Positions 6,681 to 29,721 of a stretch of DNA of 64,000 nucleotides are shown here, one piece after another. The position numbers and the translations under genes are program-made. Origin of the DNA: Acidobacteriota bacterium (GTDB taxonomy: Bacteria; Acidobacteriota; UBA890; WLXD01). The notes beneath the pieces are model-generated. The model searched no databases, had not been told where the DNA came from, and saw nothing but the letters and a program-made list of their open reading frames with translations. The stretch spans positions 1,248,001 to 1,312,000 of the forward strand of contig CBDBHB010000009.1 in the NCBI GenBank assembly GCA_965205505.1, in the 5' to 3' direction. How positions within the stretch are numbered: position 1 is the stretch's first letter; each line of letters opens with the position of its first letter.

Positions 6681-7057
6681 ATGAGAGTTCTATTGGCGAC
6701 CGTGTTGACCCTGGCATTCACCCTGGCGCTGTCTACGGTGGCGCCTGCGGCAGCGCTCGGCCAGTCGCCGACTACCGCCGCCGAGGCGATGGCGTACTAC
6801 GAGAGCGACGTCGACGACTGGCTGGATGGCCCGGTGGAGTACCTGATCCTCGACGAGGAGCGCGATGCGTGGAAGGAGCTACGGACCTCCGACCAGCGCG
6901 CCGCCTTCATCACCCGTTTCTGGGAGCGTCGTGACGCCGATCTCCGGCAGCCGGGCAACCCGTTCAAGGACGCATTCTACGAGCGCGTCGCCTACGCCAA
7001 CCGCAGGTACCGGGACACGCCGTTCCGCGGCTGGAGGTCCGACCGTGGCCGCATCGC
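6681..7057 (+). pseudogene. GWxTD domain-containing protein, 5' part (interrupted by integrated element)
   Basis: Signal peptide, PVEYLILDEER..FITRFWERRD..NPFKDAFYERVAYANRRY..GWRSDRGRI. The ORF runs into AT-rich element DNA and stops at 7088. Confidence 0.88.
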
Positions 7058-7062
7058 TGTGA
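7049..7062 (+). repeat. attL core (ccgcatcgctgtga)
   Basis: 13/14 identical to 29436-29449. Confidence 0.85.
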
Positions 7063-7097
7063 ACGTTAAATCTATGGTGTCAGAATAAACTATTTAT

Positions 7098-7110
7098 TAT
7101 CAGTAAGTTA
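7098..7110 (+). promoter_or_regulatory. IHF-binding consensus in the att arm
   Basis: tatcagtaagtta matches WATCARNNNNTTR and lies between the att core and the arm repeat. Confidence 0.6.
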
Positions 7111-7141
7111 TGAATTTTCCGAAAAGCATGGTGGTCCTTGT

Positions 7142-7157
7142 GTCACCAGATAGTCAC
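7142..7157 (+). repeat. Putative integrase arm-type site gtcaccagatagtcac (left)
   Basis: Exact 16-bp copy at 29279-29294. Confidence 0.75.
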
Positions 7158-7556
7158 GGTCGACACGGCGTGTCGGGACACCATCGGAGTCATCGAGAAA
7201 GCCCCGTCGGTTTCCAGACAAGGAACGATCACTGACACGAACAGCACCGTGGCTCGAGGGGCGTGCAGTCTGGTAAAGGCTGGATCATGGCACTGCATCG
7301 GCACTGCCGCAGGCGATGGCCATCATCACCATCGCCACCCCTCCTTCGCCCCAGTTCAGTGTGGCGTTTGAATCAGCGGAAGTCGCCGCGCGAGCATCTC
7401 GGCTCTAAGCGTTCCGCAGGCCGCTAGCAAATCCCTGTCCGGGCCGCCTTCGAGCGTCGGGAGTGACGCCTTGCTGCATCGAACCGCTCGCGGCTCTCAC
7501 GGATACTCCTGTCAGACAGCGTGTCGGCCCTATTGCCCCCGGTCCGCGGGTATCGG

Positions 7557-7689
7557 ATCCGCAACACCGAAACAATCCTTTATTTTCAATAACTTACGGC
7601 CTTTCCCATCCGCCACACTGGTATCCTATGTGGCGGATAGGAATCGCTGTAAGTTGTTGATTTCATTGGGTTGTGGCGGTGTGGCGGAT
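7557..7689. repeat. Nested palindrome overlapping the primase 3' end (putative origin)
   Basis: Three pairs of inverted arms: atccgcaacaccgaaacaa/ttgtggcggtgtggcggat, tttcaataacttacggc/gctgtaagttgttgattt, atccgccaca/tgtggcggat. Confidence 0.6.
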
Positions 7690-9971
7690 ACGACAGCCTC
7701 TTCTCGGGGCAAGTAGGTATTCCAAAGTGCCTGTAGCGCCTCGCGCTTGTAACCTTTCGGAGTACTCCCATCGGGTAGACGTACCGTAGCCGGGCGCACC
7801 ATGAACGGCCTGAGCAGGTTGGCCAGCCCGCGCGTCGACAGCCGCTTGCCGCGCCGCCATTCACTCCAGGGCCGGTGTTGCATGGCGTGCAAGGCCTTCA
7901 GGATGCTCGAGGTGGCCATCGCGTTCGGGTCTCCGACGTCGTTGAACACCTGGTGCAGATCCACCAACAGTGTCTCTGCCGCCGCAGTTTCCTGGTCGCC
8001 GGCATCGACGTTGACATACTCGCACGCGCACCATGCCAGGCCGTTTACGCCGGCCCATTGTCCGTCAGCAACATCGGCAATCGCCAGTAACGCCTCCCAG
8101 GCGTCGCGGGCACGGTCGTGAAGGCTGGCCGGGAACGTGACGTTGTTGCGTTGCGCCAGGATCGCTTTCGCGTTGTCGCCCGTCCACTTGACGATCTGCC
8201 GTTGCAGGCGCTTGATGGCGTCGCAGTCACGGTCGCGCCAAAGAGGCAGGCTCTGTCCCGGTGGCTTCCGCTGCATTCGAACTACCAGCGCACGGTCCAG
8301 CACCGTGTCCGGGAGGTCGTCGATGCCGGCCATCACCTTCGGACACCAGCTGGAAAACCGCCGCGGCTCGTGATCCTCCCCGACGCACCGGAGCACGTAA
8401 GCGCCGCTGCGCCCCTGCGAAGAGTTGATGACGGCGATCAGATCCGGGATGTCTTTCTTAGCGAACGTCCGGTCTGCTTCGTCCAACAGCAGGGTCGGGG
8501 CGCTCTTTTCGATCACCCGGAACAGCACTGCAGGGGTCAAGTTACCCGTCGGCAGAGGTCGATGTACGAACTCCGCGATGACTTCCAGCAACAGCGACTT
8601 GCCGCACCGCTTGGTGGCGCTCGTGAGGTTCAGGAACGGCGAGACGTCCAGTCGATCATGCAGCCTCGTCATCACCACCCACAGCGCCACGGCCTCGGTC
8701 AGCGGCGCCGGCATGTACACATAGCGCGCGATCAGCGCGGCGATCTCGGCAAGCATGGCCGCTCCGTCCACCGGCTCAGGCCAGGGCTCGGGCTCGGGCT
8801 CAGGCCATTGCAGTGCGCGGCCTTGAAGAGCGTTGTCACCGCTCTCTGACGCACGGGCTGCCTTGACGTCAGAATCCAATGTCCCGACGCGCACCCCCAA
8901 GCGTTTCGCCTTCGCCTTGCGCACGCGGTCGTACTCGTACGGTGGCAGCTCGGCCAGGCGCATCACTGCCTGCTCGAACTCATCATCGCCGCCGGGTGCC
9001 CCCGCGTTCGCATCGCGCTCGGGGGCCTCCGCCAGCAGCGCGACAAGATCCATCCCATCGGGTGCTTTGTCCGCCAGATCCCAGCCCTGAGGCAGTCCCT
9101 CCGGGACTTGTACGATCCGCACCGAGGCCACACCGGCCTCTCGAGCCAAGCGCGCCACCGTGTCGGCAAAGCCAGCGCCCGGTTCATCGGCGTCCGGCCA
9201 CACCGTCACCTCGCGGCCCTCGAGCACCGACCAGTCCGTCTTGTGGGGGGATTGCGCCCCATGCATGGGTGTCGTTACCACCATGTCAGGAAACAGCTTG
9301 GAGGCCGCCTCAGCCGCCTTTTCGCCCTCGCACACCAGCACCGGTGTATCTGGGGACGCGAGGATGCCGGACAGGTTCAACAGCGGCCGTGGCGCAGGAA
9401 TCCCTTTCGCCCGCCAGCCGCGCTTGCCGTTGCCGAGATCGCACCAGGTAACAGGCCGGATTTCCTTGTCGAGCGTGCCGTCCGAGCTCTTGGTATCCCA
9501 CCGGCATACATAGCCCATCAACCGGCCTTCGGCGTCGTGGTAGGGCCAGCACTGGGACGGTGCGCCATGCTCTCGGTGGTGGTAGTGCATCTGCGATGCC
9601 TCGCGTGGCACCGGCACGATGGGCACGATGGTGTCGTTGTTGCGGCCGTTGCTCTGGAGTTCGTGGCCGTGCATCTCACCAGCAAGCCCGTTGCCGAGCG
9701 TCTTGGCGAGGTCGAGTGTGGCCTCCGATACGCGACACTTCAGCCTGAACGCGTTGAGGCTTATCGGGTCGCCAAACGTCTCGTCGGTGGCAAAATCAGC
9801 CCCGATGCCGGTGTCGATGTTGATCTTGAGACTGTCGCCGGGAGCCCCTTGCAGGTTGCCGGCCATGAACTCCCTGCCTGCGACCCGGCCGGCGGGAAAC
9901 CAGCGCTTCAACAGCTCCGGGTAGGCAGCTAGCGCTTGGGCGTTGATGGTCTCGTAGTCGATGTGGCCCAT
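7626..9971 (-). CDS. Toprim primase fused to DUF3631 NTPase/helicase-like domain (island replication protein)
   Basis: VLVCEGEKAAEA and WPDADEPG Toprim motifs, SATKRCGKS Walker A, LLLDEAD Walker B, RARDAWEALLAIAD and TPKGYKRE typical of DUF3631. Confidence 0.85.
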   Translation of the reverse strand: MGHIDYETINAQALAAYPELLKRWFPAGRVAGREFMAGNLQGAPGDSLKINIDTGIGADFATDETFGDPISLNAFRLKCRVSEATLDLAKTLGNGLAGEMHGHELQSNGRNNDTIVPIVPVPREASQMHYHHREHGAPSQCWPYHDAEGRLMGYVCRWDTKSSDGTLDKEIRPVTWCDLGNGKRGWRAKGIPAPRPLLNLSGILASPDTPVLVCEGEKAAEAASKLFPDMVVTTPMHGAQSPHKTDWSVLEGREVTVWPDADEPGAGFADTVARLAREAGVASVRIVQVPEGLPQGWDLADKAPDGMDLVALLAEAPERDANAGAPGGDDEFEQAVMRLAELPPYEYDRVRKAKAKRLGVRVGTLDSDVKAARASESGDNALQGRALQWPEPEPEPWPEPVDGAAMLAEIAALIARYVYMPAPLTEAVALWVVMTRLHDRLDVSPFLNLTSATKRCGKSLLLEVIAEFVHRPLPTGNLTPAVLFRVIEKSAPTLLLDEADRTFAKKDIPDLIAVINSSQGRSGAYVLRCVGEDHEPRRFSSWCPKVMAGIDDLPDTVLDRALVVRMQRKPPGQSLPLWRDRDCDAIKRLQRQIVKWTGDNAKAILAQRNNVTFPASLHDRARDAWEALLAIADVADGQWAGVNGLAWCACEYVNVDAGDQETAAAETLLVDLHQVFNDVGDPNAMATSSILKALHAMQHRPWSEWRRGKRLSTRGLANLLRPFMVRPATVRLPDGSTPKGYKREALQALWNTYLPREEAVVSATPPQPNEINNLQRFLSAT

Positions 9972-10010
9972 CGGCCCGCTCTCATGGCTCGTGCAGTCTG
10001 ATTATCCGGC

Positions 10011-10316
10011 TCATCGCCCCGCCTGGCTCGTACTCCGGTACGGCTGGCTAAGCTTCCTGGCAACCCACTCATCGAGGCTGTCTCGCGGGTACATGACGTA
10101 ACGACCGAACTTCAGAAACTCCGGTCCGCCACCAACGCATCGCCACTTGCTCAACGTAGCGACTGCGACCGGGACGTTGTGCACTTCGGCCAGGTACGCG
10201 GAGGCTTCCACCGGGTTGAGTCGCCGCTTGTTGAACCGCGACTGAAGGGCGGTGGCGGCGTCCGCAGCGTTGGCCGGAGTCGCGCTGTTGGCTTCGTAGT
10301 GCGTGATGTCAGTCAT
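10011..10316 (-). CDS. AlpA/excisionase-like HTH DNA-binding protein
   Basis: LNPVEASAYL..TLSKWRCVGGGPEFLKFGRYVMYPRDSLDEW. Confidence 0.8.
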   Translation of the reverse strand: MTDITHYEANSATPANAADAATALQSRFNKRRLNPVEASAYLAEVHNVPVAVATLSKWRCVGGGPEFLKFGRYVMYPRDSLDEWVARKLSQPYRSTSQAGR

Positions 10317-10335
10317 TTCGATCGTCCTCGTTGCC

Positions 10336-10749
10336 TCAATTCTCAGATTTGGGGGTTGCCGCCGCGCGCAGTGGCGCGTCCGGATCGTAGGAGCCGATCT
10401 TCGCTTGCGACGCCACGAGGAGCTCGAGGTATCCGCGCCGTTGCTCCGCTGTCATCGCCTCCAACACTTTCAGCTGGTCGTTGAGCAGCTTTTCGAGCTC
10501 CTCCAGGAAGCTCGACTTGCTGATCAGCAGGCTGTCCGGACCCATGGTCAGATCCGCCACGACCAAGGCGAAGTCGATCACCACGGAATCGGAGATCTTG
10601 GCTTCGGGGTTGCGGACGAAACCCGGCAACTGGATGTTCCGCATCACCTCTCGGAGGCGTTCAATCAGCTCGGCGCATTGGAGTCGTACCGCAATTCTCT
10701 GGGTCTGTGACGTCAACTGTATCCTCCTCGTTACATAGTATGGTAACAT
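10336..10749 (-). CDS. Hypothetical protein upstream of the excisionase
   Basis: 137-aa helical ORF co-oriented with the xis-like and primase genes. No recognised motif. Confidence 0.5.
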   Translation of the reverse strand: MLPYYVTRRIQLTSQTQRIAVRLQCAELIERLREVMRNIQLPGFVRNPEAKISDSVVIDFALVVADLTMGPDSLLISKSSFLEELEKLLNDQLKVLEAMTAEQRRGYLELLVASQAKIGSYDPDAPLRAAATPKSEN

Positions 10750-11009
10750 TTGTTACATGTCAGAGTATATACTGATGTCGATCATGATACAAAAAAGATC
10801 GATCCGTCCAGAAAATAGACCAACAAGCTCACTAGTGTACGTCTCCGGGGTCCTGATGCGGCGCTGCCACCTCCACAAGCTATGCAAACGTGCTGGAGCA
10901 GTTGCCCCGCCGTATCCAGCGCTGGTCCACATCGAGGCCTGGTTGGCGAGCCGCCCGACAGCCGTGCCGTACGGCAATCAGCGTTCTTCCTCACCGCCAG
11001 CGGCGTGAC

Positions 11010-11315
11010 ATGGCGAGCGCGGAGCAGATCGTCCGCGCGCTCGCGGGTCGATGCAGCGGACATGGCGGCATGTGCCGTTGCCCGGCGCACAAGGACCGCA
11101 ACGTGAGTCTGAGCGCGACAGAGCGCGACGGGCAGGTGCTGTTGCACTGTCACGCCGGATGCATGCAGGAGGCGGTCCTGGAGGCCCTCACGGCCCGGAG
11201 TCTGGGCATCCGCCGCCACCCCGAGCTCGGCAGGCCAGCGCACACGTGGCCCTACCACGACGCTGAGGATGACCTTGTGGGCTGGATCCAGGTGCGCCGG
11301 GAGCGCGCGTCATGA
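11010..11315 (+). CDS. Primase-type zinc-binding domain protein (possibly truncated)
   Basis: CRCPAHKDRNVSLS...LLHCHAGC zinc finger. ATGA overlap with the downstream helicase. Confidence 0.7.
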   Translation: MASAEQIVRALAGRCSGHGGMCRCPAHKDRNVSLSATERDGQVLLHCHAGCMQEAVLEALTARSLGIRRHPELGRPAHTWPYHDAEDDLVGWIQVRRERAS

Positions 11316-13084
11316 GCGAGCCACCGATCACGGCCGACCAGATCCCGTGGGGTCAGCAAGTCAACTCGACTCGCGACCGGTCGCTGAAGGCGCGGATCGA
11401 GCGATCGATCAAAACCGGCGACGAGCTGGAACCGACCGACCGGCACCTGGCTGCCTTGCTCGAGCTGATCGACCGGGACAAGGATATCGAGCGCGGCGGC
11501 GGGCGCGACACGAGGCAGCGGCTCGATACTTTGGCCGAAGCCAGGCCGCACCTGGGGGCGCTCGACAACGTTAGTTATTCGGTGATCCATGGAGAGCTGG
11601 CTAAGGCGCTCGGGATCAACCGAACGCAGCTGAAGGACATCAGGGCCACCGAGAGGAGCAGAGTCTCTCGCAACGGCGCCAGCGCAGTTGCCATCAACCT
11701 GAGCGACGACATCGACCTGACGGACGACGGCCTCGCTTTGGAGCTCGGCGACAGATGGCCTGACGCTCGGCACGTGGCGGCCTGGAATCAATGGCTGTTC
11801 TTCAAAGAATCGCGGTGGGTCGTGGACAAATGCCTTGAGCACATGACGCGCGTCCGGGATTTCCTGCGGGAAAAGGTGGAAGCCCTCCAAGAGTGGGCTG
11901 AGAAGAAGGCTGAGAGCCTGGACGGTGAGGCACGCAAGAAGTTCCTGCGCTGGGTCGGAAACAAGCCTGACAAGTTGCGGAGTGCTCAAACCGTCAGGCA
12001 GGTGGTGGGTCTCGCGCGGAGCAACGATGCCCAGGCCGCGCAAGTAGCGCAGTGGGATCGCGATCCCTGGCTGCTGGGCACGCCGGGCGGCACCGTCGAC
12101 CTCCGAACGGGGGAAGTCCGCGATGGGAGCCCGGAGGACTACATAACGAAGGCGACGGCCGTGGTGCCCGCACCCCAGGGAACGCCGACGCCGCCTCGAT
12201 GGGCCGCCTTCCTGGAGCGCATCATGGGCGGCAACGAGGAACAGGTTGGCTACATGCAGCGGTTCGCTGGCTACGCCCTGACAGGGAGCATCCGGGAGCA
12301 CGCCTTTGTCTTCGGCCACGGCACCGGCGCGAATGGGAAGGGCGTGTTCACAGGAACGCTCCAGGGTGTGCTCGGCGACTACGCGCTGACCGTGCCCACG
12401 GAGATGCTCATGGTCACGCGGGGCGAACATCACCCGACGGAGTTGGCCCGGTTGCGTGGCGTCCGCCTGGCGATCGGGTCGGAGACAGAGGTAGGCAGGA
12501 CCTGGGCGGAGGCACGCATCAAGTCCTTGACCGGTGGTGATCGGATCGCGGCGCGCTTCATGCGCCAGGACTTCTTCGAGTTTGACCCGGAGTTCAAGCT
12601 GTTCGTGGTCGGCAACCACACGCCGTCTTTGCGTGGCGTGGACGAAGCGATCCGCCGCCGTCTGCACCTGTTGCCGTTTACCGTCAACATCCCTGCCGCA
12701 GAACAGGACCCGAAGCTGTCGATGAAGCTCAAGGAAGAGTGGCCGGGCATCCTGCGGTGGGCAATCGACGGCTGCCTCCAGTGGCAGCGAAAAGGCCTGA
12801 GTCCGCCGCCATCGGTTCTCGAGGCCACCGACCAGTACTTGATGGCCGAGGACGCCGTTGGCCGGTGGCTCGAAGAGTGCACACGCAAGGGTGCGAATGG
12901 GTTCAGCTCTTCCCGAGACCTCTTTGACAGCTGGAAGCAGTGGGCCGAGGCCAACGGCGAGTACGTGATCTCCAAGAAGCGCCTCGGGCAAGAACTCACC
13001 GCCCGTCGCTACAACTCCCGCCGGCAACCGGGCGGCGGCGCCCGCGGGTACGTCAGTCTAACGCTCCTACAGGGGCTGTCATGA
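11312..13084 (+). CDS. Phage/plasmid P4-family primase, D5-like SF3 helicase
   Basis: D5_N (WDRDPWLLGTPGGTVDLRTG..YITK), GTGANGKGVF Walker A, IKSLTGGDRIAARFMRQDFFEF, DEAIRRRL. Confidence 0.92.
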   Translation: MSEPPITADQIPWGQQVNSTRDRSLKARIERSIKTGDELEPTDRHLAALLELIDRDKDIERGGGRDTRQRLDTLAEARPHLGALDNVSYSVIHGELAKALGINRTQLKDIRATERSRVSRNGASAVAINLSDDIDLTDDGLALELGDRWPDARHVAAWNQWLFFKESRWVVDKCLEHMTRVRDFLREKVEALQEWAEKKAESLDGEARKKFLRWVGNKPDKLRSAQTVRQVVGLARSNDAQAAQVAQWDRDPWLLGTPGGTVDLRTGEVRDGSPEDYITKATAVVPAPQGTPTPPRWAAFLERIMGGNEEQVGYMQRFAGYALTGSIREHAFVFGHGTGANGKGVFTGTLQGVLGDYALTVPTEMLMVTRGEHHPTELARLRGVRLAIGSETEVGRTWAEARIKSLTGGDRIAARFMRQDFFEFDPEFKLFVVGNHTPSLRGVDEAIRRRLHLLPFTVNIPAAEQDPKLSMKLKEEWPGILRWAIDGCLQWQRKGLSPPPSVLEATDQYLMAEDAVGRWLEECTRKGANGFSSSRDLFDSWKQWAEANGEYVISKKRLGQELTARRYNSRRQPGGGARGYVSLTLLQGLS

Positions 13085-13087
13085 TCG

Positions 13088-13199
13088 CCCTGTACCACAT
13101 GTACCGCGTGTCCCTATTTTGGACGTATAGAGTTATCCGTGTAGCGCCCACGCGCCCGCTACGTCCTAAAGGGAAAGTCGCGGTACACGTGGTACGGGG
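13088..13199. repeat. Long imperfect inverted repeat after the D5 helicase (putative origin)
   Basis: ccctgtaccacatgtaccgcg..tccctattttggacgta paired with tacgtcctaaaggga..cgcggtacacgtggtacgggg. Confidence 0.6.
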
Positions 13200-13457
13200 T
13201 GCTCGGCGGGCGCCCGTCCGGCCTGGAGCGATAGTGCACGGATCTGCAGCTGAGCACGGCGGACCTGGCGAATGCGCTCGGGGTGCCCCTCGACACGGTG
13301 TTCGTCGAGTGGAGGCCATCGTGACAGTCGACGAGGTCGGCCCGTGGGTGCCGTGGGTTCTTCCGCAGCGTCGCCCTGAACGGGCGTCCGTTTTCCGCAA
13401 GTACCGCTAGTTTGTGGGCGTTCTGTGGGGGGGAGTATCGTCAGAAATGGTGGTCAG

Positions 13458-14098
13458 ATGAGCACTGACGGCGAGCTGCTCGTGACGCGGCGCCAGCTGT
13501 GCGCGATCTACGACCGAAGCGACTGGACGATCTTCCGGTGGGCGACCGGTTGTCCTGGCGAGCGGCGCCAGCCTCGGCGCCCGATGCTGTATGACCTGGT
13601 TGCTGTGGGCGGCTTGGCGCTGTGAGAGGCGCGCGGCGCTCGTTTGCCGAGAGGGAAACCGGAACCGTCGACGAGCTCGCACCGATGCGTCTGGCGCTAG
13701 TGGCGGCGGCGACCCCGAAGGCCCGCGAGTCGGAAGCGCCGGCGAAGCTGACCGAGCAGACGTACCGCCAGCGCGCCGGCGAGCGCCAGGTCCTCGTCCT
13801 TCCTTGCCGGCGAGCGCGACCAGGACCTCGCGCACCGCGCGCTCCAACTCGTTGCCGAGGCCGCTCTTACCGCCGCGATCGTACGTCAGCGCCAGGTGGT
13901 CGAGGATCGTGGCCGACCAGCTCAGCAGCCGCGTCCGCACCGCGACAATGTGTCCGGCCCATCGAGGCCGTGATCTACTTCGAAGGCCTGCTCGAGGCCA
14001 CCTTCGAGCCCGCAACTACGCACAGGGTCCGTGAGCAGCGGGGCAACCGGGAGATCACGCGCGAGGCGCTGCTGGTCGGCGTTATCGTGTCCAGGTAG
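13458..14098 (+). pseudogene. Lambda Nu1-like terminase small subunit, frameshifted
   Basis: LVTRRQLCAIYDRSDWTIFRW..GCP...LYDLVAV resembles the Nu1 winged HTH. It continues in other frames. Confidence 0.5.
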
Positions 14099-14642
14099 AC
14101 GGCCCCACGGGGAGCAGGTCAGGTGCACCTAACAACAGGTGCACGGGGTAGGGGTACGGGTATCCGCAAGGAATCCCGTTCCGATCCGAGGACCACTCTA
14201 AGGGCTTTTCTTCGCTAAACCGCGTGTTAAAAAGATTCCAAAAAGCCTTATGTTAACTTTTGTAGTGTTTCGTAGCGTATGAACATGCTTCATTTGTGAC
14301 CCCTGAGTTGTATATACGTGGTCATTGATCTTGAGGAAAGTAATCACAGCGATGTACCACACAATGTCCGCTTGTTAAATACAATGCCTCGAAGCCCACG
14401 AAGCAGAATCGGAACGCTCCAGCGAAGTTGGGACGACTATTACGAGCCGCAGGTCGGGATCAGTGCCGATAGCGCTCGTTACGTCAGGCATCGCGCCGCA
14501 CGCAGCTTTACCGAATGCCTGGCGCGGATGTTCCCACTCGTCGAGTTCCGGGGTCGCAGTCTTCCTGACCCAAACCCCGAAAACGGTGCCAGGTTGATGT
14601 TTAGGAAATCGGTGTACCGTCGTCCTCCAAGCAGGAGGACAG

Positions 14643-14909
14643 ATGAAGCGGAAGAGGTACACGGACGAGCAGATCGCCTACGCGCTGCGGCAGGCTGAGG
14701 CGGGCACGCCGATCAAGGAGGTGTGTCGCAAGCTGGGCGTCAGCGAGCAGACGTTCTACACGTGGCGCCGCAAGTTCGCCGGGATGGGCGTGGCCGAACT
14801 TCGGGAGCTACGACAACTCCGCCATGAGAACCGGAAGTTGAAGCAGCTGGTGGCAGATCTGAGCTTGGACAAGCACATGCTCCAGGAGGTGCTGTCAAAA
14901 AAGGTGTGA
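14643..14909 (+). CDS. IS3 transposase OrfA
   Basis: [47 protein letters not shown]6G slippery site at 14897-14903. Confidence 0.93.
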
Positions 14910-15760
14910 AGCCGGCGCGCAAGCGCGAGGTGGTGCGGTACCTGCAGGACGGGTTCCGTGTCAGTGAGCGTCGAGCGTGTCGGCTGATCGAGTTGTCGCG
15001 CACCAGCCATCGGTATCAGAGCACAAGGACGGACGACCCCGTGCTGCGGCGTCGTCTTGGCGAGCTCGCCGCGGCGCGTCCGCGGTTCGGGTATCGGAGG
15101 TTGTGCGTGTTGCTACGCCGCGAGGGATGGGTAGTGAACCAGAAGCGCGTGTATCGGATCTATCGAGAGGAGGGGCTGGAGGTACGGACCAAAAAGCGAC
15201 GGCGCAAGCGGGCGAGTCACATACGGCTTGTGCTGCCGCCCGCAGAGCGGCCCAACGAGCGCTGGAGCATGGACTTCGTGACCGATCGGCTCGAGAGTGG
15301 CCGGCCGTTTCGGGTGCTGACGGTGGTCGATCAGTTTAGCCGTGAATGTCCGTTACTTGAGCCGGGCGTGTCGATGACCGGCAAGGCGGTGGCTGGAGCA
15401 CTCGAGCGGCTGTCGTTTGCCGGGCCGTTGCCACGGGTCATCACCGTCGATAATGGCTCAGAATTCTACTCCCAGGCGATGGACTCCTGGGCGTACCGAA
15501 GAGGCGTGCAGTTGGAGTTCATTCGGCCGGGAAAGCCCGTGGAGAATGCGTTCATCGAGAGTTTCAACGGACGGCTTCGCGACGAATGCCTCAACGCCAA
15601 CCTGTTCTTCTCGATCGATGACGCGCGCCGAAAACTGGAGGCTTGGAGGCTTGATTACAATACCCACAGACCACACAGCTCACTGAACGATCGAACTCCT
15701 ACGGAGTTCGCCAGGGGCTGGCAACCGGAGGCTTCGGAACACCGAATCCTAAACCTCTGA
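14906..15760 (+). CDS. IS3 transposase OrfB (rve DDE)
   Basis: [47 protein letters not shown]. Confidence 0.95.
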
Positions 15761-16096
15761 CTGGTACTGATTTCGGGGTGGGGTCAAGCACCGAGTTACT
15801 GAGATTAGACGTGGTACTAACCGTGGGGTCAGGTCATTCCCATCCAGAACGAGGGCGGAGTGTTGCGGGACTTGGAGCACTTGCTGGATCGCATCCTGAA
15901 TGACCAGGTGATCATTGCGCAGGCACGGCAGGGCGAGCGGCCAAGACAATTGCCATCAAGTTCGCACCCCTGCTTCACGAGGTCGAACCGGCGCGCAGCG
16001 AATGGCGAGCGCAAGTGACCTGCTAGTTTTCTCGTGTGCCCGGCTGGAGCTGGTCATCTCGACCTACTTGCCCAGGGCCGCTTCTGACTCCAGTCA

Positions 16097-17035: not shown

Positions 17036-17129
17036 GGCAACGTCTTGTCTTGTGACCAGTTCTAAGGGTGGCCCAGGGTTGAATGGTTGATTCGTGTTCG
17101 GTCTTGGAGGGAGCTGGTGCCACTACTAC

Positions 17130-20701: not shown

Positions 20702-20849
20702 AGGCACGGCGCCGGATCGATATAGTCGATGTGGCAGCGGCGACGGCGAGGACGGAGAAACGGGGAAAAGACACTCCCCGCACAAATGGACCCGGCCTAG
20801 AGGCGTTGATCAACACGCGGTCCTGGTCGGTGAGCGGCGCAGTTTCGGC

Positions 20850-21272
20850 AGCGCTCGGTGGCCCTAGCGCGCGAGCTAGATCCGGACCTACCCGGGCAAG
20901 GTCAAGAATACCAGCTGCTTCCTGACGGACATGGCACGGCCGCATCGAAGGGCACGAGGTCATCGGTGCCGCCGCGTGGGTGCCGGCATGCATGGCTCAG
21001 CCGACATTCGTGCGTTCCAGGCCGAGGTTCTCGAGGAACACGTGCGCACCCATCGGTCGCTTCTAATGGATACAGCCATCTACGAATGCAACATCGGCCA
21101 CGACACAAACGGCAACCCTCGACTGGGTAAGAGCCGTACGCGAGGACGCATCGACGCACTGGAAGCCGCCGTCCTGGCGGTGGGATTGGGGCGCTGGTGG
21201 CGCTTGCCGTCTCCGGACCGCACAGTTGTCCGTAGCCCATACGACTACGTGCTCACCGAGATCTACACCTGA
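20850..21272 (+). pseudogene. Terminase large subunit, C-terminal nuclease fragment
   Basis: DTNGNPRLGKSRTRGRIDALEAAVLAVG matches the C-terminal pattern of COG4626-type TerL. Confidence 0.6.
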
Positions 21273-21669
21273 CGGCTGGGGCCGAACCTGCTCACGAAGG
21301 CGCTGGCGAAAATCGGGCGCCGACGGATCTCATCGTTGGTCCGCGCCCATCTACGGGACAATGGCTACCTGGTGCCGGCGGGCACGACTTGGTCTCCGAT
21401 CCTGAACTACGTGCACGGTACCGGAGATCCTTGGCTGTTCGATCTCTACAAGGCCGGGCTCCCGTCCACGCCCGATATCGCGGTGAGTCCCTGAAGGAGA
21501 GCCGTTGCACCCATACCAGCGGCGCTGACTCATCCGGTATAAGCGGTACAGCCGGTACAGACCATGCCCGGCCGACAGGGCTTGTACCGGATGTACCGGT
21601 TGAAAGGATGCCTTCCGCGAAACAGTGCCGAGAAAGCGGGCCCGAACACGGAACCGGCTCAGGCAGATG

Positions 21670-21937
21670 CCGAGTGAAGTGTTTTGCTTTGAGTGTCGCG
21701 GAGCGATTGATCCGACGATCCCATGCGGAAAGCGTCAGCATGCACGTGTGCGGGCGAAGGCTGCATCTTCGGGCTGCTTCCGCTCCGATCCCGGAGCTGC
21801 TCGAGGCCATCCGCGTTCACAAGGACGAGATTCTCGAAGCACTCCAGAATGACCGCCGGAGCCTATCGATCGGCTGCCTGAAGCCACCGGAGCCGATGCG
21901 GACAGTGTCCCGGCTGCCACGGCGGATTGCAGCCTGA
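21670..21937 (+). pseudogene. Small TubC-N-docking-like domain often found next to phage primases
   Basis: GRRLHLRAASAPIPELLEAIRVHKDEILEAL. Confidence 0.45.
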
Positions 21938-22049
21938 CGAAGAGAGCTCACCTTGTGCAGCCTTGCCGTAGAGCTATATTGGGCGGGGTGCGCCCGACTT
22001 CATGGTAGCGTCGCTTCGGGTCGTCCCACGCCACTAAACCGGACGAAGG

Positions 22050-22289
22050 ATGGAAGAATGGACGAAGAAACGTGCAGCCTTGAAATTTTGCCGTAGCCTA
22101 TTCGCGACTAGCAACCTGATCGGAACCGACTTCGACGATGTTCGGGTGATGGAAATCGTGAAGCGAGACTTCCCGCAACAACCCGGCGGAGACAGCGTGC
22201 ACGTCACGTTCTCCGTTAGCTGGCACGCAATCGGGAAGGCTGGTGAGGACGCGCACGGCGCCTTGGAGGTGCTTCTCCCGAGTGAATGA
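22050..22289 (+). CDS. Hypothetical protein
   Basis: 79-aa ATG ORF of normal composition. No motif. Confidence 0.35.
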   Translation: MEEWTKKRAALKFCRSLFATSNLIGTDFDDVRVMEIVKRDFPQQPGGDSVHVTFSVSWHAIGKAGEDAHGALEVLLPSE

Positions 22290-22307
22290 AACCGCCTGGA
22301 ACTCTCG

Positions 22308-22738
22308 TGACCTGACCCGCTGAAACAGATCCAGAAGTAATCACATGATCTGGGTCGAGAAAGGGAGGTCAGAGTGGTGAGTAAGAGGCACAGCGCCGAG
22401 CAGATCGTGCGCAAGCTCCGAGAGGCAAGGGGCCGGTGGTCGATAGCCCAGCGAGCTGTGCGGTCGAACTCGGTTGTACTGCTGCCGCCACCTCTCGATC
22501 AGAACCCGTGCCTGCTTGAGCGTGTAGAAGATCTCCCGGTCCAGCAGCTCGTCGCGGAGCTTGCCGTTGAAGCTCTCCACGTAACCGTTGTCCTTAAGGC
22601 GAGCCCGGCTCCATCAACAGCCTCCCACTAAGGCGCTGTTGTTGAACCCCGCTCCGCTACGCTCCGCCGGCTTCAACAACCCCTTGTCGGCACCGTGTTA
22701 CTGAGATAAGACGTGGTACTAACCGCGGGGTCAGGTCA
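22308..22738. mobile_element. Internally rearranged mini-IS3
   Basis: Ends tgacctgaccc...ggggtcaggtca. OrfA start VSKRHSAEQIVRKLREA on +, OrfB end ESFNGKLRDELL..RPHSSLGYRPPAP on -. Confidence 0.8.
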
Positions 22739-23127
22739 GTCGGTTGTCGATCCTGCAACCGCGTAGAGGACACTGTGCTTTACGTGCCTTCGCTCGCAGT
22801 CTGAAGGACGGACTGATAGGGAGTACGCAATGAGCGAGACTTGGCGGTTCTCCCCCTCTGGTCTCGTATACGGTCGTGCCTAGATCGCTCCGATTGGATC
22901 GGACGCCGGAGGAACTCGGTCGAGAGTTCCTGGCGATGCAGACACGCATCGACCTGTCGCGTCTGTGCCGCCAGGGCCGCTGGCGACGGTTGCCCTGAAT
23001 CAAGTCGGCCCAATACGTCAATGTCCGCTGTCGGGACCGAAGTCGTCGCTCAGCATGGAGCCACCCCAGTGCGGAGTTTCATCTCGCATCCACCGTCATA
23101 GTCCGTTGCGATGCAATGCCTCTGGAC

Positions 23128-23853
23128 TCATGATATTGCAACCTTCGGTTCGGGCATTTGATTCCAGATGCGGTTGTCCAGCATCCGGCCTGTCTTCTTC
23201 TTGAATACGCCGCCCCATTGTTTAAAGAAGAACGGCACATTGCTTTGCAGGCAGTTGTCGCGGATGTCCCGTACCCAGTCCGCTTCCATTGGCCGCGCGC
23301 CCGGCCCGGATTCGCCGCCGACGATGACCCAATCGATCTCTTGAAGCGGTATTTCCGCCAACGGTCCGAGCAAGGGTTCGAGAGACAAGAACTTCGTATG
23401 GGCTCCGGTTGCCTTAAGTTGATCTAATCTTCGCATCCACCGTTCGGACTCGATGCTGGTGCCGAGCCATATGTTCGACGTCCAGCACAGTCTCTCGTCC
23501 AGCGCTACGACGCGGCCCGGCCGCTTCGTTAGCACCTGAAAGGTATGCTGCGATGCGCGATTCATGACTTCAAAAACGGCCTCGATGAACCGCGATGATA
23601 CCGACTCATGGAAAAGATCGGACATGGAATTCACGAATACAAGGCGCGGTCTGCACCATTTCAACGGCTCGTCCAGAGTGGACTCGTGAACGACTACCGA
23701 GAATCCCCGCCTATATTTGTCCAACCCCATAGCCCGTAGTCTCTTAGCCATGCGCTCCGCATAGCAGAACTGGCAGCCGTGGCTGATTTTGGTGCAGCCC
23801 GTTACCGGGTTCCAGGTAGCCTCGGTCCATTCGATTGCGGAGCGTGTAGACAT
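23128..23853 (-). CDS. DUF5131 / phage Gp37/Gp68 family protein (three-Cys, radical-SAM-like)
   Basis: [72 protein letters not shown]. Confidence 0.93.
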
Positions 23854-23855
23854 CG

Positions 23856-24716
23856 CTACAGACGTTCTAAGATATGCGTGGCAATGTTTGTGGCGACCTG
23901 CTTGCCCCTTGGATTGCCGACGCAGAACAGAAATTCAAACAATGGGGACTTCTTGGAGTTCTTTAAGGTTCTGGATTGCGTCAGCAATCTGTCTCCGAAC
24001 AACCTACCGAGCTTGTCCTTGTAGACTTCGAGAAGCCCACCAACACCGGGATCCCTCTCCTGATCTGTATCCCCAAACAGGGTTGGTTGAGGGCTGTTCC
24101 GGTAGAGTTCCCGCCAGCTCTCATCGCGAAAAACCAGTTCCAACCGCTTGACCCATTGGACTGAAATATCGTCCGGTTGCTTCGATCTTGGAAGCATCCG
24201 CGCGATCGCCGACACGGGGAATAGAATCCATGTGTCCAGTGCATTGAAGGCCGCTATTGTTTGGATAGTGGACCACTCGACGTCAGTTGCAAAGGGGTCC
24301 AAGAAAAGGACGCCACGCCATCGGCACCAATCTTCGTTGAGATTGGACAGAAATTTGTTTGCATCGGAGTTCTCTATTGAGATATTTCTTCCAGGATTAG
24401 TAGCACGCACCTCCTCTAGTCGCGCACATCGGCGAGAATCTTCCTCAACGAAGATCAGTCTGTCGAAAGGCTTATCCTTAATGCTGACAGCTCGCTCAAC
24501 GGAGCCACTCACGAAGTGGCGGATCTCGTTATCGTCCTCATCGCTGGGCACTACGATCCGGCCCGTGCCCGCAAATGCGTCTATGTACAAAAGCTTGAAC
24601 GGCTGACTCTTCAACGCCGTCGTGTACGCGTCGAGATAACTCTCCAATATGCCAAGCTTCTCGAGTGTCCATGCTCCACCGAACAGCGTGGATGAGTTCT
24701 GTTCTAGGTCTCTCAT
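23856..24716 (-). CDS. tcmP: Three-Cys-motif partner protein TcmP (SAM-binding fold)
   Basis: [36 protein letters not shown]. Adjacent to DUF5131. Confidence 0.88.
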
Positions 24717-24822
24717 TCTTTCAGGTCCGCAATCTTCAAGCTCTCGATCCCGCGGTTGTCCACGATCTTGACCGCTGCTCGTCCGTGTTCCACCGGCTTC
24801 GAAGGCAGGGAGACAGTTGCCG
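24713..24822 (-). pseudogene. C-terminal remnant of a site-specific DNA methyltransferase (type III Mod-like)
   Basis: [34 protein letters not shown]. Its TGA overlaps the tcmP ATG. Confidence 0.6.
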
Positions 24823-25009
24823 CGATGCAGCTAACGATCGCGATGCCCATCGGATACCGTTGAACGGTACCCTTGATCGCGGCTGCCGGAACGCTGCGGT
24901 GCGGTTGGTCGAATTCGTAGCTCAGTTGGGCCGTGAGATTGAGAGGCGTCCATTGTGTGAAGATATCTGACCATGTCTGTGAACGACCGTGTTTCCACTG
25001 ATTGTAGCG

Positions 25010-25215
25010 AAGTCGAGGCGCTCACACTCGATCTGGTCGGACCCTGGGCGGGCCATGAACTTGACGCTGAGCAGTTGCCGGGCCGTGAGCGCCCGTCGAA
25101 CTGGTACGTGGCCGGTTTTCTCATCCCAACGGACACACCAGCCGACCGGCGTGCTGATGCGGACGAGGACGAGGACCTGCATACGGTCCCCGACGCGGCC
25201 GGTCTACCTGCCGCG
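25010..25215 (+). pseudogene. DISARM helicase DrmA-like N-terminal fragment
   Basis: VEALTLDLVGPWAGHEL..E.LPG..RPSNWYVAGFLIP...ADADEDED, recognised from memory of DrmA N-termini. Confidence 0.55.
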
Positions 25216-25550
25216 TCGATCACCCGCCGCGTGAGTACTTCGGCAGAGGCGATTTGCCGGTGGCGGATGTCCTCGGCGCCGAGCGCCCGGTAGATCCCTT
25301 GCCCGTGGATCCGGCACACGCGGCCGATGCCGGTGATGCCGGGCGGGTTCTCTTCGGCGGCCACGCCTTGGGCGATGAGGGCATGGACCGCGCGGCGCAC
25401 CTTCTCGATGTGGCAACCCAGAACCTCGTCCACTGCGCCCGGGTGAAGACACCGCCGTGTAGACAGGCCAGGGCGATCCATTCGGCGCGGCGTCCCGTCC
25501 AGCCGAAGGCCTCCAGCGCCTTTCTCGCGTCCCTTCAGATGGGCGATCAT
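25215..25550 (-). pseudogene. Fragment of a mobile-element-associated hypothetical protein
   Basis: MIAHLKGREK/ALEAFGWTGRRAEWIALACLHGGVFTRAQ../..RVCRIHGQGIYRALGAEDIRHR across frameshifts. Confidence 0.4.
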
Positions 25551-25915: not shown

Positions 25916-25928
25916 GTCCGGGCCGATG

Positions 25929-27505
25929 TCAGACGATGACCTCAAGGGCATAGCGCCGATCCAGGTACGGGTGCGCAAACTGGTTGCGGTAGCTGCGCAG
26001 GCAACCGTAGCAGCTGGAGTCGCAGCCGCAGTTTCCTTGGACTCGCTGCCTCGCGTTGGCGAGTACCTCGTCGAACACAATCCCCTGCTCCATTTGGGCC
26101 ACCAGCCCGGCGCCGCCGGGCACGTTGTCGTACAGCACGATGGCGGACTCGCCGGGATTGCCTCCGCCAGCGATCGTCGCGTTCAGGTCGGTGTCCGGAA
26201 CATCCAGGGTCTCCGCCGCGCCGAGCAGCATCGCATACGCGACGGAATAAGCGGCCCACTCGCCGTGCAATCCCGGAAACTGCAGACGCACGACATCGGT
26301 CACCAGTTCGTGGCCCAGCGAGAACCGTCCCAGCGTCCCGCTGCATGGAGAGTTCGACGGTGAATTGTGCGTCGCCTTGGGCGAGGTCATGTGCGCACCG
26401 CAAGAACGGCCGATAAGGAAACCCTCCCGCTTCCTGCCCTCGCTAAGGATGACAAGGGTCCCGGGTTGAGCCTTTGTAACCTGGACGCCGGAGAGGATCC
26501 TCGTTTCGGGTAGGTCATCGTCGTCAAAGCCTCGAAAAAACGGTCGCGTCGTATACAGGCGACGCGCCCGCCCGTGCGGCTCCTTCGGTTGCTTGAAGAG
26601 CGGCGTTACGAACCCGAACTCCGGTATCAGGTATTTTCGTGCATTGGGCGGTGCGGTCGGATCGCCCTCGTTCCATTGCTTGAAACTGCGCGTGTCGTTG
26701 TATCGATAATGCCGAACGGGCCATTCCTTACCGGAGACCTTCTTCACGCCGCAGGATTCCCACTCCAGTTTCCTGGCCACCACCTTGCCGCCGGGGGCAT
26801 ATTCGGCGATGGCCTGCGACAGATCGTGCTGGAGCGTAACGCCCATACGGTTGCCGTCCCGGGGACGAGTATCGAGTTCGACGACATCCACGGGGAACCC
26901 GTACTTCGGGATGACCGCCTTGCGGGACAAGAAATTAAGCGTCTGCTCGCGGGCAATGGTCTTCATGCGGTCTTCCACTCTGTCCGTGCCCTTGCGTCGG
27001 TCGAACAGATCCTGCCGGTTACGCTCCATGTCGACATAGTCCGAGCACACTTCAATCTCCACGGCAGCAAGCCGACTGTCGGACCCCGCAACCTGCTCGG
27101 TCCATGCGTCCGCTGCGAGTCCGGTGCTCTTGTGCAGGAGATCGGGAACGATCTCGCGCAGTGACGCTGCCAATGTGCTGTTGTTCTCGCAGAACGCCCT
27201 CAGGTCCAGCGTTGCGCGTGGGCTATGCCAGTCCCCAACCAAGTCCTGTACACGGTTGAATCGCATGGCGTTGCTGCCGGATCTGAAGAAGGCGGACAGG
27301 GCAGTGGCCACCATGTGCCGCAAGACGATCTTCTGGTTCGTCAACCGCAGGCGCGGCGGGTGCACCGCGCCACGGATTAGCCGATGTTCCGGATCTTCGT
27401 AGTGATACAGGTCATGGGGATTTCGGCGGCAGTACGTCAGAGCCAGGCCTGGCGTGGCCGCTCGCCCCGCCCGCCCCACGCGTTGCGTGTAGTTGAAGGG
27501 TTCCG
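25929..27505 (-). pseudogene. DEAD/DEAH helicase C-terminal half with DUF1998 zinc domain, 5'-truncated
   Basis: Motif VI NYTQRVGRAGR, IPKYGFPVD, AIAEYAPG, LYDNVPGGAG, CGCDSSCYGCLRSYRNQ. Motifs I-V absent. Confidence 0.8.
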
Positions 27506-27660
27506 CGCCCGTGAATGGCCGACAGCGACCGGTAGCGGCGCCTCTCGAACGTGAAGCCCCATCGAGCACTTCGACCACCAGGTCGCGGCCCCGATAAGCG
27601 CGGCGAAGCAGCATCCCCGGCTGCGGAGCACGCCATCGCGATTCAGGGATAGGCGCACGT
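27505..27660 (-). pseudogene. DUF2924 domain fragment
   Basis: PGMLLRRAYRGRDLVVEVLD/GFTFERRRYRSLSAI. Confidence 0.65.
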
Positions 27661-27934
27661 GCAGCCGCCACACAGCGGCCCAGGATCGCCGCGGGTACCG
27701 CATACCAAATCTCTGATGCTGGGTGCGGCGGCGGCGGCTCTCAGCGGCTCTAATACGCTTGCGCCCTAGTCTGCGGGCCTTCCGCACGACCCCGGTAGCG
27801 CAACTGGGCGACGGCACCGCGGACGGAGATCGGTGATCACGCGGAGCATGGACCTCGAAATCGCGGCGCACGAAGCCGTCGAAGATACCTCAACAACTCC
27901 CCCCTGAGGAGATCGGTCCCCCTACCGTGCCGCG

Positions 27935-29260
27935 CTAGGAAGTCGCCTGTAGCGAGCCGGCGATGGGCTCGGTAGTTGCCGACAGTCGTTCCGTCCCTGT
28001 ATGTAGAACCGTTGCCTGCTCTCCTGTCATCAGTTCGTGGATGCGCGCCGCCACCCTGTCGGCGGCCGCGATCAGCACGCTATCAAGGTGGTGGATGTAG
28101 CGGCTCGTTACCGAACTGGCCGCATGGCCCACAAGGGCGGCGATGGTGTGCTCGGTGAAGCCCAGATCGCCCGCCATGCTGGCGTAGGAGTGACGCAGAG
28201 TGTGGAAGGTAACACCCTCTAGTGCAGCGCCTTGGACGATCTTGCGCCAAAGGGGACGCATCCCATCTACCGTGACCGGTCCCTTGCCGCGAGCAGCTGG
28301 AAACAGATAGGCAACCGGTTCATCCGGCTCTACAGTGCCTAGCACATCCAACGCCGCCCGCCCGATCGGACGAACCGACGCACCCGTCTTGGAGTCTTCC
28401 AGACGCCAGCACCGCCCCTCGAAGTCCACCTCGGACCATTTCAGGTTCGTGACTTCGCCAACACGGCATCCGGTCAGCGCCAGTAACCGCATGACCATGA
28501 GGGCTCGACCGTTGCTGCCTTCATCCTCGGCACCCTGCAAGGCCGCGCCGAGAGCCCTGTACTCCTCGGCGTTCAAGCGCCGCGTGCGACGATTGTACGC
28601 GGGAGTTTTGACCCCATGCACCGGGTTGAACGGGATCACCCCTTCGGACACCGCAAAGGACAGGATGCTGCCCAGCAGGCCGACGCAACGAGTGGCGGCG
28701 CCCATACCCCCCGTGACCACGGCCTTGCCGCGCGCTTTGGCCGTTTTCTCCACCACCGCCGTCTTGCCCGCGGCCACGTCGCGAATGAAGCGGTTCACGT
28801 CCGCTTGCCTCAACTCGTGAACCCGCTTGGTTCCCAAGAGCGGCTTGATATGGCGTTGGATCCGGCCCTGATCGTTGTACAGCGTCGATGCCTTCTTGGG
28901 CCTGCCCCGCTTGCCAACGATCAGGCCTCCTTCGGCGGCCTGCATGTATTTGTCGCACAACTCACCGACGGTGAGGGTGTTACGGCGTGTGGCACGCTCG
29001 GCGGCCGGATCGCCGCCCTTGAGTGCCCCGGCGAACGCCACTACGGCGAGCTTGCGGGCTTCATCGGCCGTGAGCTTGCCGTGTGGCCCGAGCGCCATGC
29101 GTCTGCGCACACCGTCACGGTTGCGGTAGTCGGCATAGTAGGTGCGCTTACCTGACGGGAACACGCGCAGGCCGAAACCCGACAGCTCCCCGCACCAGAT
29201 GAAGTAGGGGCGTTGTCTGGGGACGGCCGCATCGACGATTTTCTTGGTCAGTCTAGCCAT
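27935..29260 (-). CDS. Tyrosine recombinase/integrase with arm-DNA-binding N-terminus
   Basis: LSGFGLRVFPSGKRTY arm domain. Catalytic LTGCRVGE (R), DSKTG (K), HTLRH (HxxR), VGH and TSRY (Y) all present. Confidence 0.95.
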   Translation of the reverse strand: MARLTKKIVDAAVPRQRPYFIWCGELSGFGLRVFPSGKRTYYADYRNRDGVRRRMALGPHGKLTADEARKLAVVAFAGALKGGDPAAERATRRNTLTVGELCDKYMQAAEGGLIVGKRGRPKKASTLYNDQGRIQRHIKPLLGTKRVHELRQADVNRFIRDVAAGKTAVVEKTAKARGKAVVTGGMGAATRCVGLLGSILSFAVSEGVIPFNPVHGVKTPAYNRRTRRLNAEEYRALGAALQGAEDEGSNGRALMVMRLLALTGCRVGEVTNLKWSEVDFEGRCWRLEDSKTGASVRPIGRAALDVLGTVEPDEPVAYLFPAARGKGPVTVDGMRPLWRKIVQGAALEGVTFHTLRHSYASMAGDLGFTEHTIAALVGHAASSVTSRYIHHLDSVLIAAADRVAARIHELMTGEQATVLHTGTERLSATTEPIAGSLQATS

Positions 29261-29278
29261 CCTGATCCTCGTGTTGAA

Positions 29279-29294
29279 GTCACCAGATAGTCAC
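29279..29294 (+). repeat. Putative integrase arm-type site gtcaccagatagtcac (right)
   Basis: Exact copy of 7142-7157, about 20 bp upstream of the integrase start. Confidence 0.75.
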
Positions 29295-29430
29295 CAAAAA
29301 AGTGGAAAGGTGGCGACTGTCGGTGAGTTGATCGAAAGATCAGGATAGGTCATATATTCAATACCTACAATTGTTTAGAAGAATAAAGCTACTTTTTGAA
29401 GACTTCCGATATTGCCGGAAAATACCCCAT

Positions 29431-29451
29431 CGTCACCGCATCGCGGTGACG
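29431..29451. repeat. attR: perfect inverted repeat cgtcaccgc-atc-gcggtgacg containing the shared core
   Basis: 9-bp arms around a 3-bp centre. Includes ccgcatcgc shared with attL. Confidence 0.85.
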
Positions 29452-29721
29452 CTCGGGTTGCCGGATAGCCAGCGGCCCATCCGCTCTGGCACTGGGCTCG
29501 TCTGGACATACCTCACGTTCGGTGCTCACGCCGAGGGCAAGGGCTTCAGTAGCGTTACCGGCCGAGTGGAGATTGCCTTCGTGTCGCGGGGTACCGCGCG
29601 CAACAACTACACGATCTCCGGCGCGCAGGGCACCGGGATCTACCCTGCGTACGTGCTCCGTGCGCTCGAATTCAGCCGCCGTGCCGCGGTCGGTGAGGCA
29701 GCCAACCGCCCCGTCTCCTAG
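29436..29721 (+). pseudogene. GWxTD domain-containing protein, 3' part
   Basis: RIAVTLGLPD...VWTY...VEIAFV continues the GWxTD pattern (GRI...G.PD...W.Y) in frame with the 5' part. Confidence 0.85.

Follow-up and report, generated by a model that had tools for sequence, protein, structure and literature searches.

A P4-type integrative island inside a GWxTD coding sequence of an acidobacterium and a related island at a second target

Genes controlled by excision of a resident element are exemplified by sigK, which is interrupted by skin. For the phages phi10403S in comK (PMC7397523) and phiSa3 in hlb (PMC6597384), portions of the respective reports describe conditional excision as observed and the insertion as widespread in the species. 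An island in a coding sequence is in itself a common situation: part of the description of the TIGER/Islander resource places 43.4% of about 1.75 million mapped islands in coding sequences (PMC12424338). Here we analyse a 64,000-nt stretch, referred to as the window, of the genome of an Acidobacteriota bacterium (assembly GCA_965205505.1, contig CBDBHB010000009.1, positions 1,248,001 to 1,312,000), in which a 22.4-kb island with a P4-type tyrosine integrase splits a 217-codon gene of the GWxTD family. All positions are given in window coordinates, and the genome that holds the window is called G000.

Two further bodies of work bear on this arrangement. In sections of a study of helper-embedded phage-inducible chromosomal islands (HE-PICIs), integrases that hit the interior of a gene are said usually to bring replacement sequence with them; the HE-PICI integrase clade itself repeatedly changes its target gene, makes gene-disrupting insertions without replacement sequence in the element's attachment site (attP), and includes one subgroup in tRNA-Phe genes whose integrase is extremely similar to one that targets a coding sequence (PMC10111431). 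Islands and satellites with a P4-type integrase and a P4-family primase often carry defence genes, according to part of another account (PMC13586616). A literature search for the term GWxTD found no paper. The probable explanation of the locus, in our view, is an ordinary site-specific insertion of a P4-type island that knocked out one redundant GWxTD paralog.

The interrupted gene and its empty counterparts

The two ends of the island were located from the reading frames that it interrupts. On the left, the open reading frame (ORF) that starts at 6681 reads ...PFRGWRSDRGRIAV and then, entering AT-rich foreign DNA just past the gene part, adds eight foreign residues (NVKSMVSE) before a stop at 7086-7088. 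On the right, the frame ending at 29721 continues as RIAVTLGLPDSQRPIRSGTGLVWTY... from 29437 (RIAVTLGLPD...VWTY...). Both junctions, attL and attR, carry the same 9-bp core, CCGCATCGC, and the direct repeat extends to 14 bp with one mismatch, the next five bases being TGTGA on the left and GGTGA on the right. The island is single copy in G000, with one copy of each of its arms in the assembly.

Uninterrupted genes in two members of the same genus define what was inserted. When the N-terminal part of the gene was searched against 41 related genomes, G004 proved to have a copy of 94% identity and G001 one of 75%, and in both congeners the uninterrupted gene is syntenic with the split one. In G004, alignment of the left flank extends to window position 7062 and that of the right flank begins at 29436, with 14 bp covered by both (locus L014, 1494-1507); the sequence reads straight through the island-free site as ...GACCGCGGCCGCATCGCGGTGACGCTCGGG... 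within an intact gene of 217 codons that starts MRVLL. The G001 locus (L015) has the same uninterrupted pattern, with one change in the core. Because the flank alignments overlap within an intact congener gene, the 22,378 bp between the core copies (7058-29435) are an insertion.

The first-pass annotation of this window had proposed that an island splits a GWxTD gene, that neither half of the gene is decayed and that excision could restore it, and had suggested a comparison with related genomes carrying an uninterrupted allele. The split is borne out by the ORF reading, the 9-bp repeats and the uninterrupted syntenic genes, and the comparison found that allele in G004 and G001. The 5′ and 3′ parts share 94% and 90% amino-acid identity, respectively, with the G004 ortholog; neither contains a stop or a frameshift, and they are collinear with that 217-aa protein, such that precise excision would rebuild the gene. 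The placing of the break at the signature motif of the family needs qualification: the break lies in the same gene, but GWRSD occupies residues 117-121 and the core spans codons 123-126 (G-R-I-A), so that the gene is cut just behind the motif, two residues past it, and not inside it.

Searched alone, the N-terminal half matches TIGR04514 (68.1 bits against a cut-off of 28; profile positions 2-79 of 105) and PF20094 (28.1 bits against 26.9), and the C-terminal half has no family match in the profile search. By eye, the N terminus looks like a signal peptide. The product left to the occupied gene would be a protein of 135 aa with a cut GWxTD domain. The attP of the island supplies no substitute for the 3′ part, and the insertion is thus a knockout of the gene. 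G000 has 13 GWxTD domain matches; two close paralogs are intact (83% and 75% identity in the N-terminal half) and about ten more GWxTD proteins remain, so that the loss is probably tolerated.

The integrase and its targets

The integrase gene starts at 29260, 175 nt from the core. Its product matches PF00589 (Phage_integrase; 78.6 bits, profile positions 2-170 of 172), PF13356 (Arm-DNA-bind_3; 51.4 bits, residues 4-90) and phrog_1 (221.8 bits), and its TGCRVGE, SKTG, HTLRH, GHA and SRY motifs pair with motifs of XerA (5hxy) and lambda Int (1z19). The Arg, Lys, His-x-x-Arg, His and Tyr of these motifs, which we take to be the catalytic residues, are all present in the alignment, and the enzyme thus appears catalytically intact, as first annotated.

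A close relative of this integrase was found in G004 only, where it belongs to a related island. That island shares window positions 7054-13243 (92.8% identity) and 27506-29446 (96.9%) and has the same arms as the G000 island, with a different 9-bp repeat, TCGACGAGG, at both ends. At its integrase-side junction, host sequence ...CATCC TCGACGAGG is followed by the island arm TGACGGTGGGG..., and at its other junction island sequence ...AACGTTCACA TCGACGAGG is followed by host sequence ATGCGTTGAGC.... The corresponding empty site in G000 reads ...GTCC TCGACGAGG ATGCGTTGAAC... and lies in a 1033-aa APH-M23-aminotransferase gene, 11 codons ahead of its stop. The core of each island therefore equals its own target. 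Read by eye, the two targets share 6 of 9 core positions, 8 of 13 in the right arm and 4 of 11 in the left arm; the total of 18 of 33 is roughly twice the chance value of about 9 that base composition predicts.

The G004 copy has since deteriorated. The integrase there is in two pieces, with a TGA, and the ends of the island lie 1.5 Mb apart on one contig (C15:205139 and C15:1703735; loci L037, L180 and L185); because both ends have host DNA on their low-coordinate side, an inversion has split the island since it was inserted. IS3-type genes adjoin its integrase-side piece.

More distant relatives of the integrase sit mostly beside tRNA 3′ halves, chiefly those of tRNA-Arg(CCG). Among 401 genomes of the phylum, six including G000 have a match at E <= 1e-40, and G004 alone exceeds 38% identity. 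A genome scan across all species gave 57 loci and a metagenome scan 77, the latter with none above 51% identity; in viral contigs the integrase gave two matches, both at 29%, and the 25-nt arm pattern gave none. No close relative beyond G004 was found in the genome, metagenome and viral-contig scans. Upstream sequence was tallied for 70 of the 134 genome and metagenome loci, namely those at 33% identity or more with an upstream stretch judged usable. An anticodon-loop motif of tRNA-Arg(CCG) lies within 450 nt upstream at 34 of the 41 loci with at least 45% identity, within a tRNA 3′ half whose end lies some 210-226 nt from the start of the integrase, and three more of the 41 (L047, L049 and L075) look Arg-like by eye, with a variant stem. 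At 33-44% identity, the 29 loci comprise 13 with tRNA-Gly(GCC)-type fragments, 4 with Arg-type fragments and 12 others, 7 of which (L067-L069, L116, L117, L119 and L120) are Thr(CGU)-like by eye. These type names are anchored by the only complete tRNA genes that ARAGORN detected in the 42 loci scanned, a tRNA-Arg (ccg) in L059 and a tRNA-Gly (gcc) in L071.

The G000 enzyme is sister (support 100/100), in a tree of 40 integrases rooted at the midpoint only, to 16 that are associated with tRNA-Arg(CCG). Of 47 loci listed for this tree, 8 were set aside for internal stops (L053, L056, L066, L071, L072, L082, L127 and L133), L053 being the 61% relative, and the broken integrase of G004 was likewise left out. 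No tRNA gene was found in the 64-kb window, and the integrase-side junction lies in a protein-coding frame. A tRNA-mimic site behind the core was considered and rejected, the five tRNA-Arg genes of G000, including the CCG one, being unlike the core by eye.

The first-pass annotation had raised the prospect of an integrase dedicated to GWxTD coding sequence and had named the insertion sites of its homologs, once tabulated, as the test. The outcome goes largely against such targeting: the close relative sits in the APH-M23-aminotransferase gene, relatives at 33-61% identity sit mostly beside tRNA 3′ halves, and none of the 134 genome and metagenome loci has a GWxTD gene (best tblastn E value 1.2). 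A related expectation, that GWxTD genes would offer many attachment sites, fares better as regards the sites than as regards their use. The predicted 25-nt bacterial attachment site (attB) occurs with 1 mismatch in one G000 paralog (C7:249754) and with 3 in another (C9:1767311), and elsewhere in G000 no place is nearer than 4 mismatches; it is identical in the G004 ortholog. Both paralog sites are empty, however, and 13 of 14 subfamily genes in five genomes of the genus are contiguous, as judged from the match coordinates of their N-terminal and C-terminal parts, the split one being the copy described here. All four of those in G004 are contiguous despite the related island in that genome. A family of sites is therefore available but has been used once.

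Excision, decay and competing explanations

Neither attP nor an empty attB for this copy is present in the G000 assembly. From 24 public runs listed, the 7 with at least half of the sampled words were in the form of contigs, the one run of raw reads being a Hi-C library given simply as from the same study, and X15, X1, X18 and X20 were aligned to window 5500-25499, a 20-kb reference that spans one of the two junctions. Among the contigs listed, alignments end at 6986 and resume at 7054, 7138 or 7549. No loose end or joint fell at the junction among those listed, beyond which there were 1285 further loose ends and 36 further joints, and none of the contigs listed spans the junction or departs from the reference there. 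In X18, a 3694-nt contig aligns to 7054-7598 at 23 differences and continues beyond 7054 for 935 off-reference letters, and the 5′ part of the GWxTD gene lies on a separate contig; the 3694-nt contig may represent a variant island that adjoins other DNA.

The two gene halves were also compared for signs of relaxed constraint. Between G000 and G004, the ratio of nonsynonymous to synonymous divergence (dN/dS) is 0.27 for the N-terminal half (7 nonsynonymous and 8 synonymous changes) and 0.87 for the C-terminal half (12 and 5), numbers too small to support a claim. Polarised with three other sequences, the C-terminal changes divide into 5 in G000, 1 in G004 and 3 ambiguous ones, and the N-terminal changes into 1, 4 and 2, respectively. 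Four of the five G000-specific changes in the C-terminal part are the residue of the C7 paralog (29437-29718 compared by eye with C7:249488-249769), which hints at gene conversion between the G000 paralogs rather than decay. A recent insertion would leave the same undecayed halves, and these data fail to separate a recent neutral insertion from a maintained switch.

On the explanation that we consider probable, site-specific recombination by the tyrosine recombinase would have placed the island in the coding sequence of a short, putatively secreted GWxTD paralog, with the crossover within the 9 bp CCGCATCGC now found at both ends, and the IS3 and repeat insertions would have entered the island later. 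The integrase would use short degenerate sites in coding DNA in this genus, and not GWxTD genes as such. It presumably made both the G000 and the G004 insertions, the core apparently having been reset through the use of a different site, and we infer that the insertion was selectively near-neutral. Excision is mechanistically possible and would restore the gene. Several points weigh against this explanation. The GWxTD site looks favourable and not accidental: the host half-site on the right is a near-exact inverted copy of the left half-site of the island, and a real preference for this GWxTD subfamily, given the near-identical site in a paralog, may be at work. The target preference itself is drawn from two members of the integrase branch (n = 2), one of which, the G004 island, may be atypical given its broken integrase and inversion. 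The freedom of both gene halves from stops and frameshifts is what would be expected of a gene that is used after excision, and tolerance through redundancy is something that we infer from the paralogs.

In a competing explanation, the site in the GWxTD ‘RIAVTLG’ subfamily is the primary attB of this integrase branch, several paralogs are usable, the G004 target is a secondary site and no regulation is needed. In attR, the core with its flanks forms a 16-nt inverted repeat, 88% complementary, around ATC, and because the half-sites are so paired the host side makes a good core-type site. The near-matches in the C7 and C9 paralogs (24 and 22 of 25 positions), the conservation of the sequence in the G004 ortholog, with one core change in G001, and the poorer fit by eye of the G004 site to the arms all agree with such a primary site. 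Against this, occupancy of a GWxTD gene has been seen once, the near-perfect second site in G000 is unoccupied, the four G004 genes are contiguous in a genome with a related island, and the distant relatives include none in a GWxTD gene; we give the explanation a small but appreciable chance of being right. Movement of a transposon-like kind, with the 9-bp repeats as target-site duplications from staggered cuts at an essentially arbitrary target, would account for two related islands with identical arms and 9-bp repeats of different sequence, and the ends do read TG...CA. However, no terminal inverted repeats past TG/CA are visible by eye, the sole transposase is that of the internal IS3 element, itself a separate 1271-nt repeat, and a tyrosine integrase with an arm-binding domain starts 175 nt from one end; the two targets are more alike than an arbitrary choice would suggest, and the relatives of the integrase are site-specific for tRNA genes. 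This mode of movement is highly improbable.

The island could alternatively be a reversible switch, leaving the gene under some condition, surviving as an episome by means of its own primase and helicase, restoring the GWxTD protein and later re-integrating. A mid-gene insertion without replacement sequence in attP, the predicted in-frame restoration, the apparently intact integrase alongside a replication module and the undecayed gene halves all fit a switch, and exceptions to the replacement-sequence rule are, in the parts of the HE-PICI study that treat them, usually understood as regulated gene integrity (PMC10111431). So common a position as the inside of a gene is nevertheless weak evidence for regulation, the assembly holds no excision product, and the insertion is not conserved, being found in one of the 14 subfamily genes, with the ortholog empty in G004 and G001. 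The close relative of the integrase lies in another gene, the excisionase candidate scores below threshold, and the truncated DruE gene, the IS3 copy and a short genome-wide repeat look like those of an ageing resident; two intact close paralogs, moreover, make switching of this copy less needed. A switch is consequently improbable as an account of the locus. More improbable still is an extended form of it, a mobile on/off cassette that excises, replicates as an episome and re-enters attB in any of two or three near-identical paralogs, thereby silencing different GWxTD members in different cells; if it were true, the differing 9-bp cores of G000 and G004 would record a retargeting of the integrase from tRNA genes to coding sites.

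Island content and comparison with known systems

The features of the window are collected in Table 1. On its gene content, the element is a P4-type integrative island with candidate defence cargo, and neither a prophage nor pristine. A P4-type integrase and a P4-family primase, as in P4-like satellites, are present. Among the island ORFs searched, no capsid, tail, terminase or other virion family scored above threshold, and no Sid/Psu/Delta-like genes for capsid size or helper exploitation were found in Pfam, NCBIfam or PHROGs, the search covering ORFs of 50 aa and more. Three small ORFs lie between the DUF3631 gene and the P4-family primase, and one of them carries the weak helix-turn-helix (HTH) match: it reaches 19.1 bits against HTH_17, for which the cut-off is 27, and has no match in PHROGs or NCBIfam. 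The excisionase-like gene of the first-pass annotation is accordingly retained as a candidate ORF and no further. The DruE piece, a C-terminal third near the integrase, is by its profile coverage most likely a truncated defence gene.

Table 1. Features of the window, in order of position
Feature	Position	Strand	Remarks
5′ part of split GWxTD gene	6681-7088	+	Codons 1-126 authentic, then island-derived residues and stop
Left 9-bp core	7049-7057		CCGCATCGC; attL crossover region; direct repeat
Island DNA between core copies	7058-29435		22,378 bp; absent at syntenic G004 and G001 sites
Primase-like protein, 781 aa	7626-9971	-	DUF3631, weak Toprim match
101-aa ORF	10011-10316	-	Sole excisionase/AlpA-like candidate; sub-threshold HTH_17
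P4-family primase/helicase	11312-13084	+	D5_N, DUF5906, TIGR01613 (298 bits)
IS3-family insertion sequence, 1271 nt	14566-15836		ORFs 14643-14909 and 14906-15760; HTH_Tnp_1 and rve
M43 peptidase-like protein	16097-17035	-	Cargo; profile match
Schlafen/AlbA_2 protein	17130-18233	-	Cargo; profile match
DUF4268 protein	18797-19480	-	PDC-S11 candidate defence family; C-terminal two thirds of profile only
DUF5131 protein (PDC-M41B)	23128-23853	-	Member of candidate defence pair
TcmP protein (PDC-M41A)	23856-24716	-	Member of candidate defence pair
DruE fragment, 580 aa	25929-27671	-	MZB domain; Druantia DruE profile positions 1115-1672 of 1776
P4-type tyrosine integrase, 441 aa	27935-29260	-	Arm-DNA-bind_3 and Phage_integrase
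AT-rich arm between integrase and core	29262-29435		97% identical to arm of G004 island
Right 9-bp core	29436-29444		CCGCATCGC; attR; direct repeat
3′ part of split GWxTD gene	29437-29721	+	Codons 124-217 and stop

Several stretches of the window recur elsewhere in G000. The IS3-family element has 31 further copies at 98-99.9% identity and looks recently active. A repeat of about 200 nt (22428-22628) has 88 other matches in the genome and is also found beside the G004 island remnant. Inside the DruE fragment, the 651 nt at 26855-27505 are 100% identical to C8:462081-462731; this identity stops exactly at 27506, where homology to the G004 island starts, and C8:462969-463249 resembles window 10929-11212 (82%), a pattern that points to the remnant of a second, related island and to a boundary of recombination. 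The region upstream of the P4-family primase (10901-11488, including the ORF 10782-11258) matches six further sites in C8 and C9 at 80-95%, and G000 may hold several related replication modules. Outside the island, upstream of the GWxTD gene, 5473-6019 consists of two tandem units of about 275 nt (5473-5744 and 5741-6019) that resemble miniature inverted-repeat transposable elements; the repeat has 188 other G000 matches, each 100 nt or longer and 97-99% identical, is missing from the syntenic region of G004 and has very high depth in the public contig sets.

With P4-type islands the element shares an integrase with Arm-DNA-bind_3 at one end, a TIGR01613 primase, candidate defence cargo and, next to the replication genes, a small HTH ORF. 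It differs from them in its acidobacterial host and in its target, the middle of a coding sequence instead of a tRNA gene; unlike P4 satellites, it has no capsid-redirection or satellite-specific family among the ORFs searched, and it is a candidate satellite at most. The closest integrases outside the genus (45-61% identity; sister clade, 100/100) belong to alphaproteobacterial islands at tRNA-Arg(CCG) genes (L039-L106), with which the present island shares a spacing of about 175-226 nt between integrase start and junction. In those islands the junction lies in the anticodon loop of the tRNA, whereas the window has no tRNA and the tRNA-Arg(CCG) of G000 does not resemble the core by eye. The island pair of G000 and G004, with the same arms, 97% identical integrase-side DNA and different cores and genes, on a branch sister to the tRNA-Arg(CCG) clade, offers material on how an integrase changes its target.

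As in the comK and hlb switches, the insertion lies within a coding sequence, the gene is inactive while occupied and precise excision is predicted to restore it; unlike those switches, it occupies one of 14 related genes and is known here from sequence alone. Its in-gene position, absence of replacement sequence and frame-restoring excision make the locus a formal candidate for regulated gene integrity. The phylum is little studied, and GWxTD proteins are a family of unknown function. With HE-PICIs it has in common that close integrases occupy different target genes and that attP holds no replacement sequence, and it differs from them in integrase lineage and host, in having two members and in having no apparent helper phage. 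In lambda, which also integrates at secondary sites, identity between attP and attB over roughly 7 bp is needed, and a changed overlap region retargets the element; Bauer et al. in 1985 reportedly altered the affinity of lambda for its sites through the overlap region. A lambda-style change of overlap would likewise account for the equal arms and differing 9-bp cores of the two islands, a comparison by analogy that rests on the two natural insertions described here.

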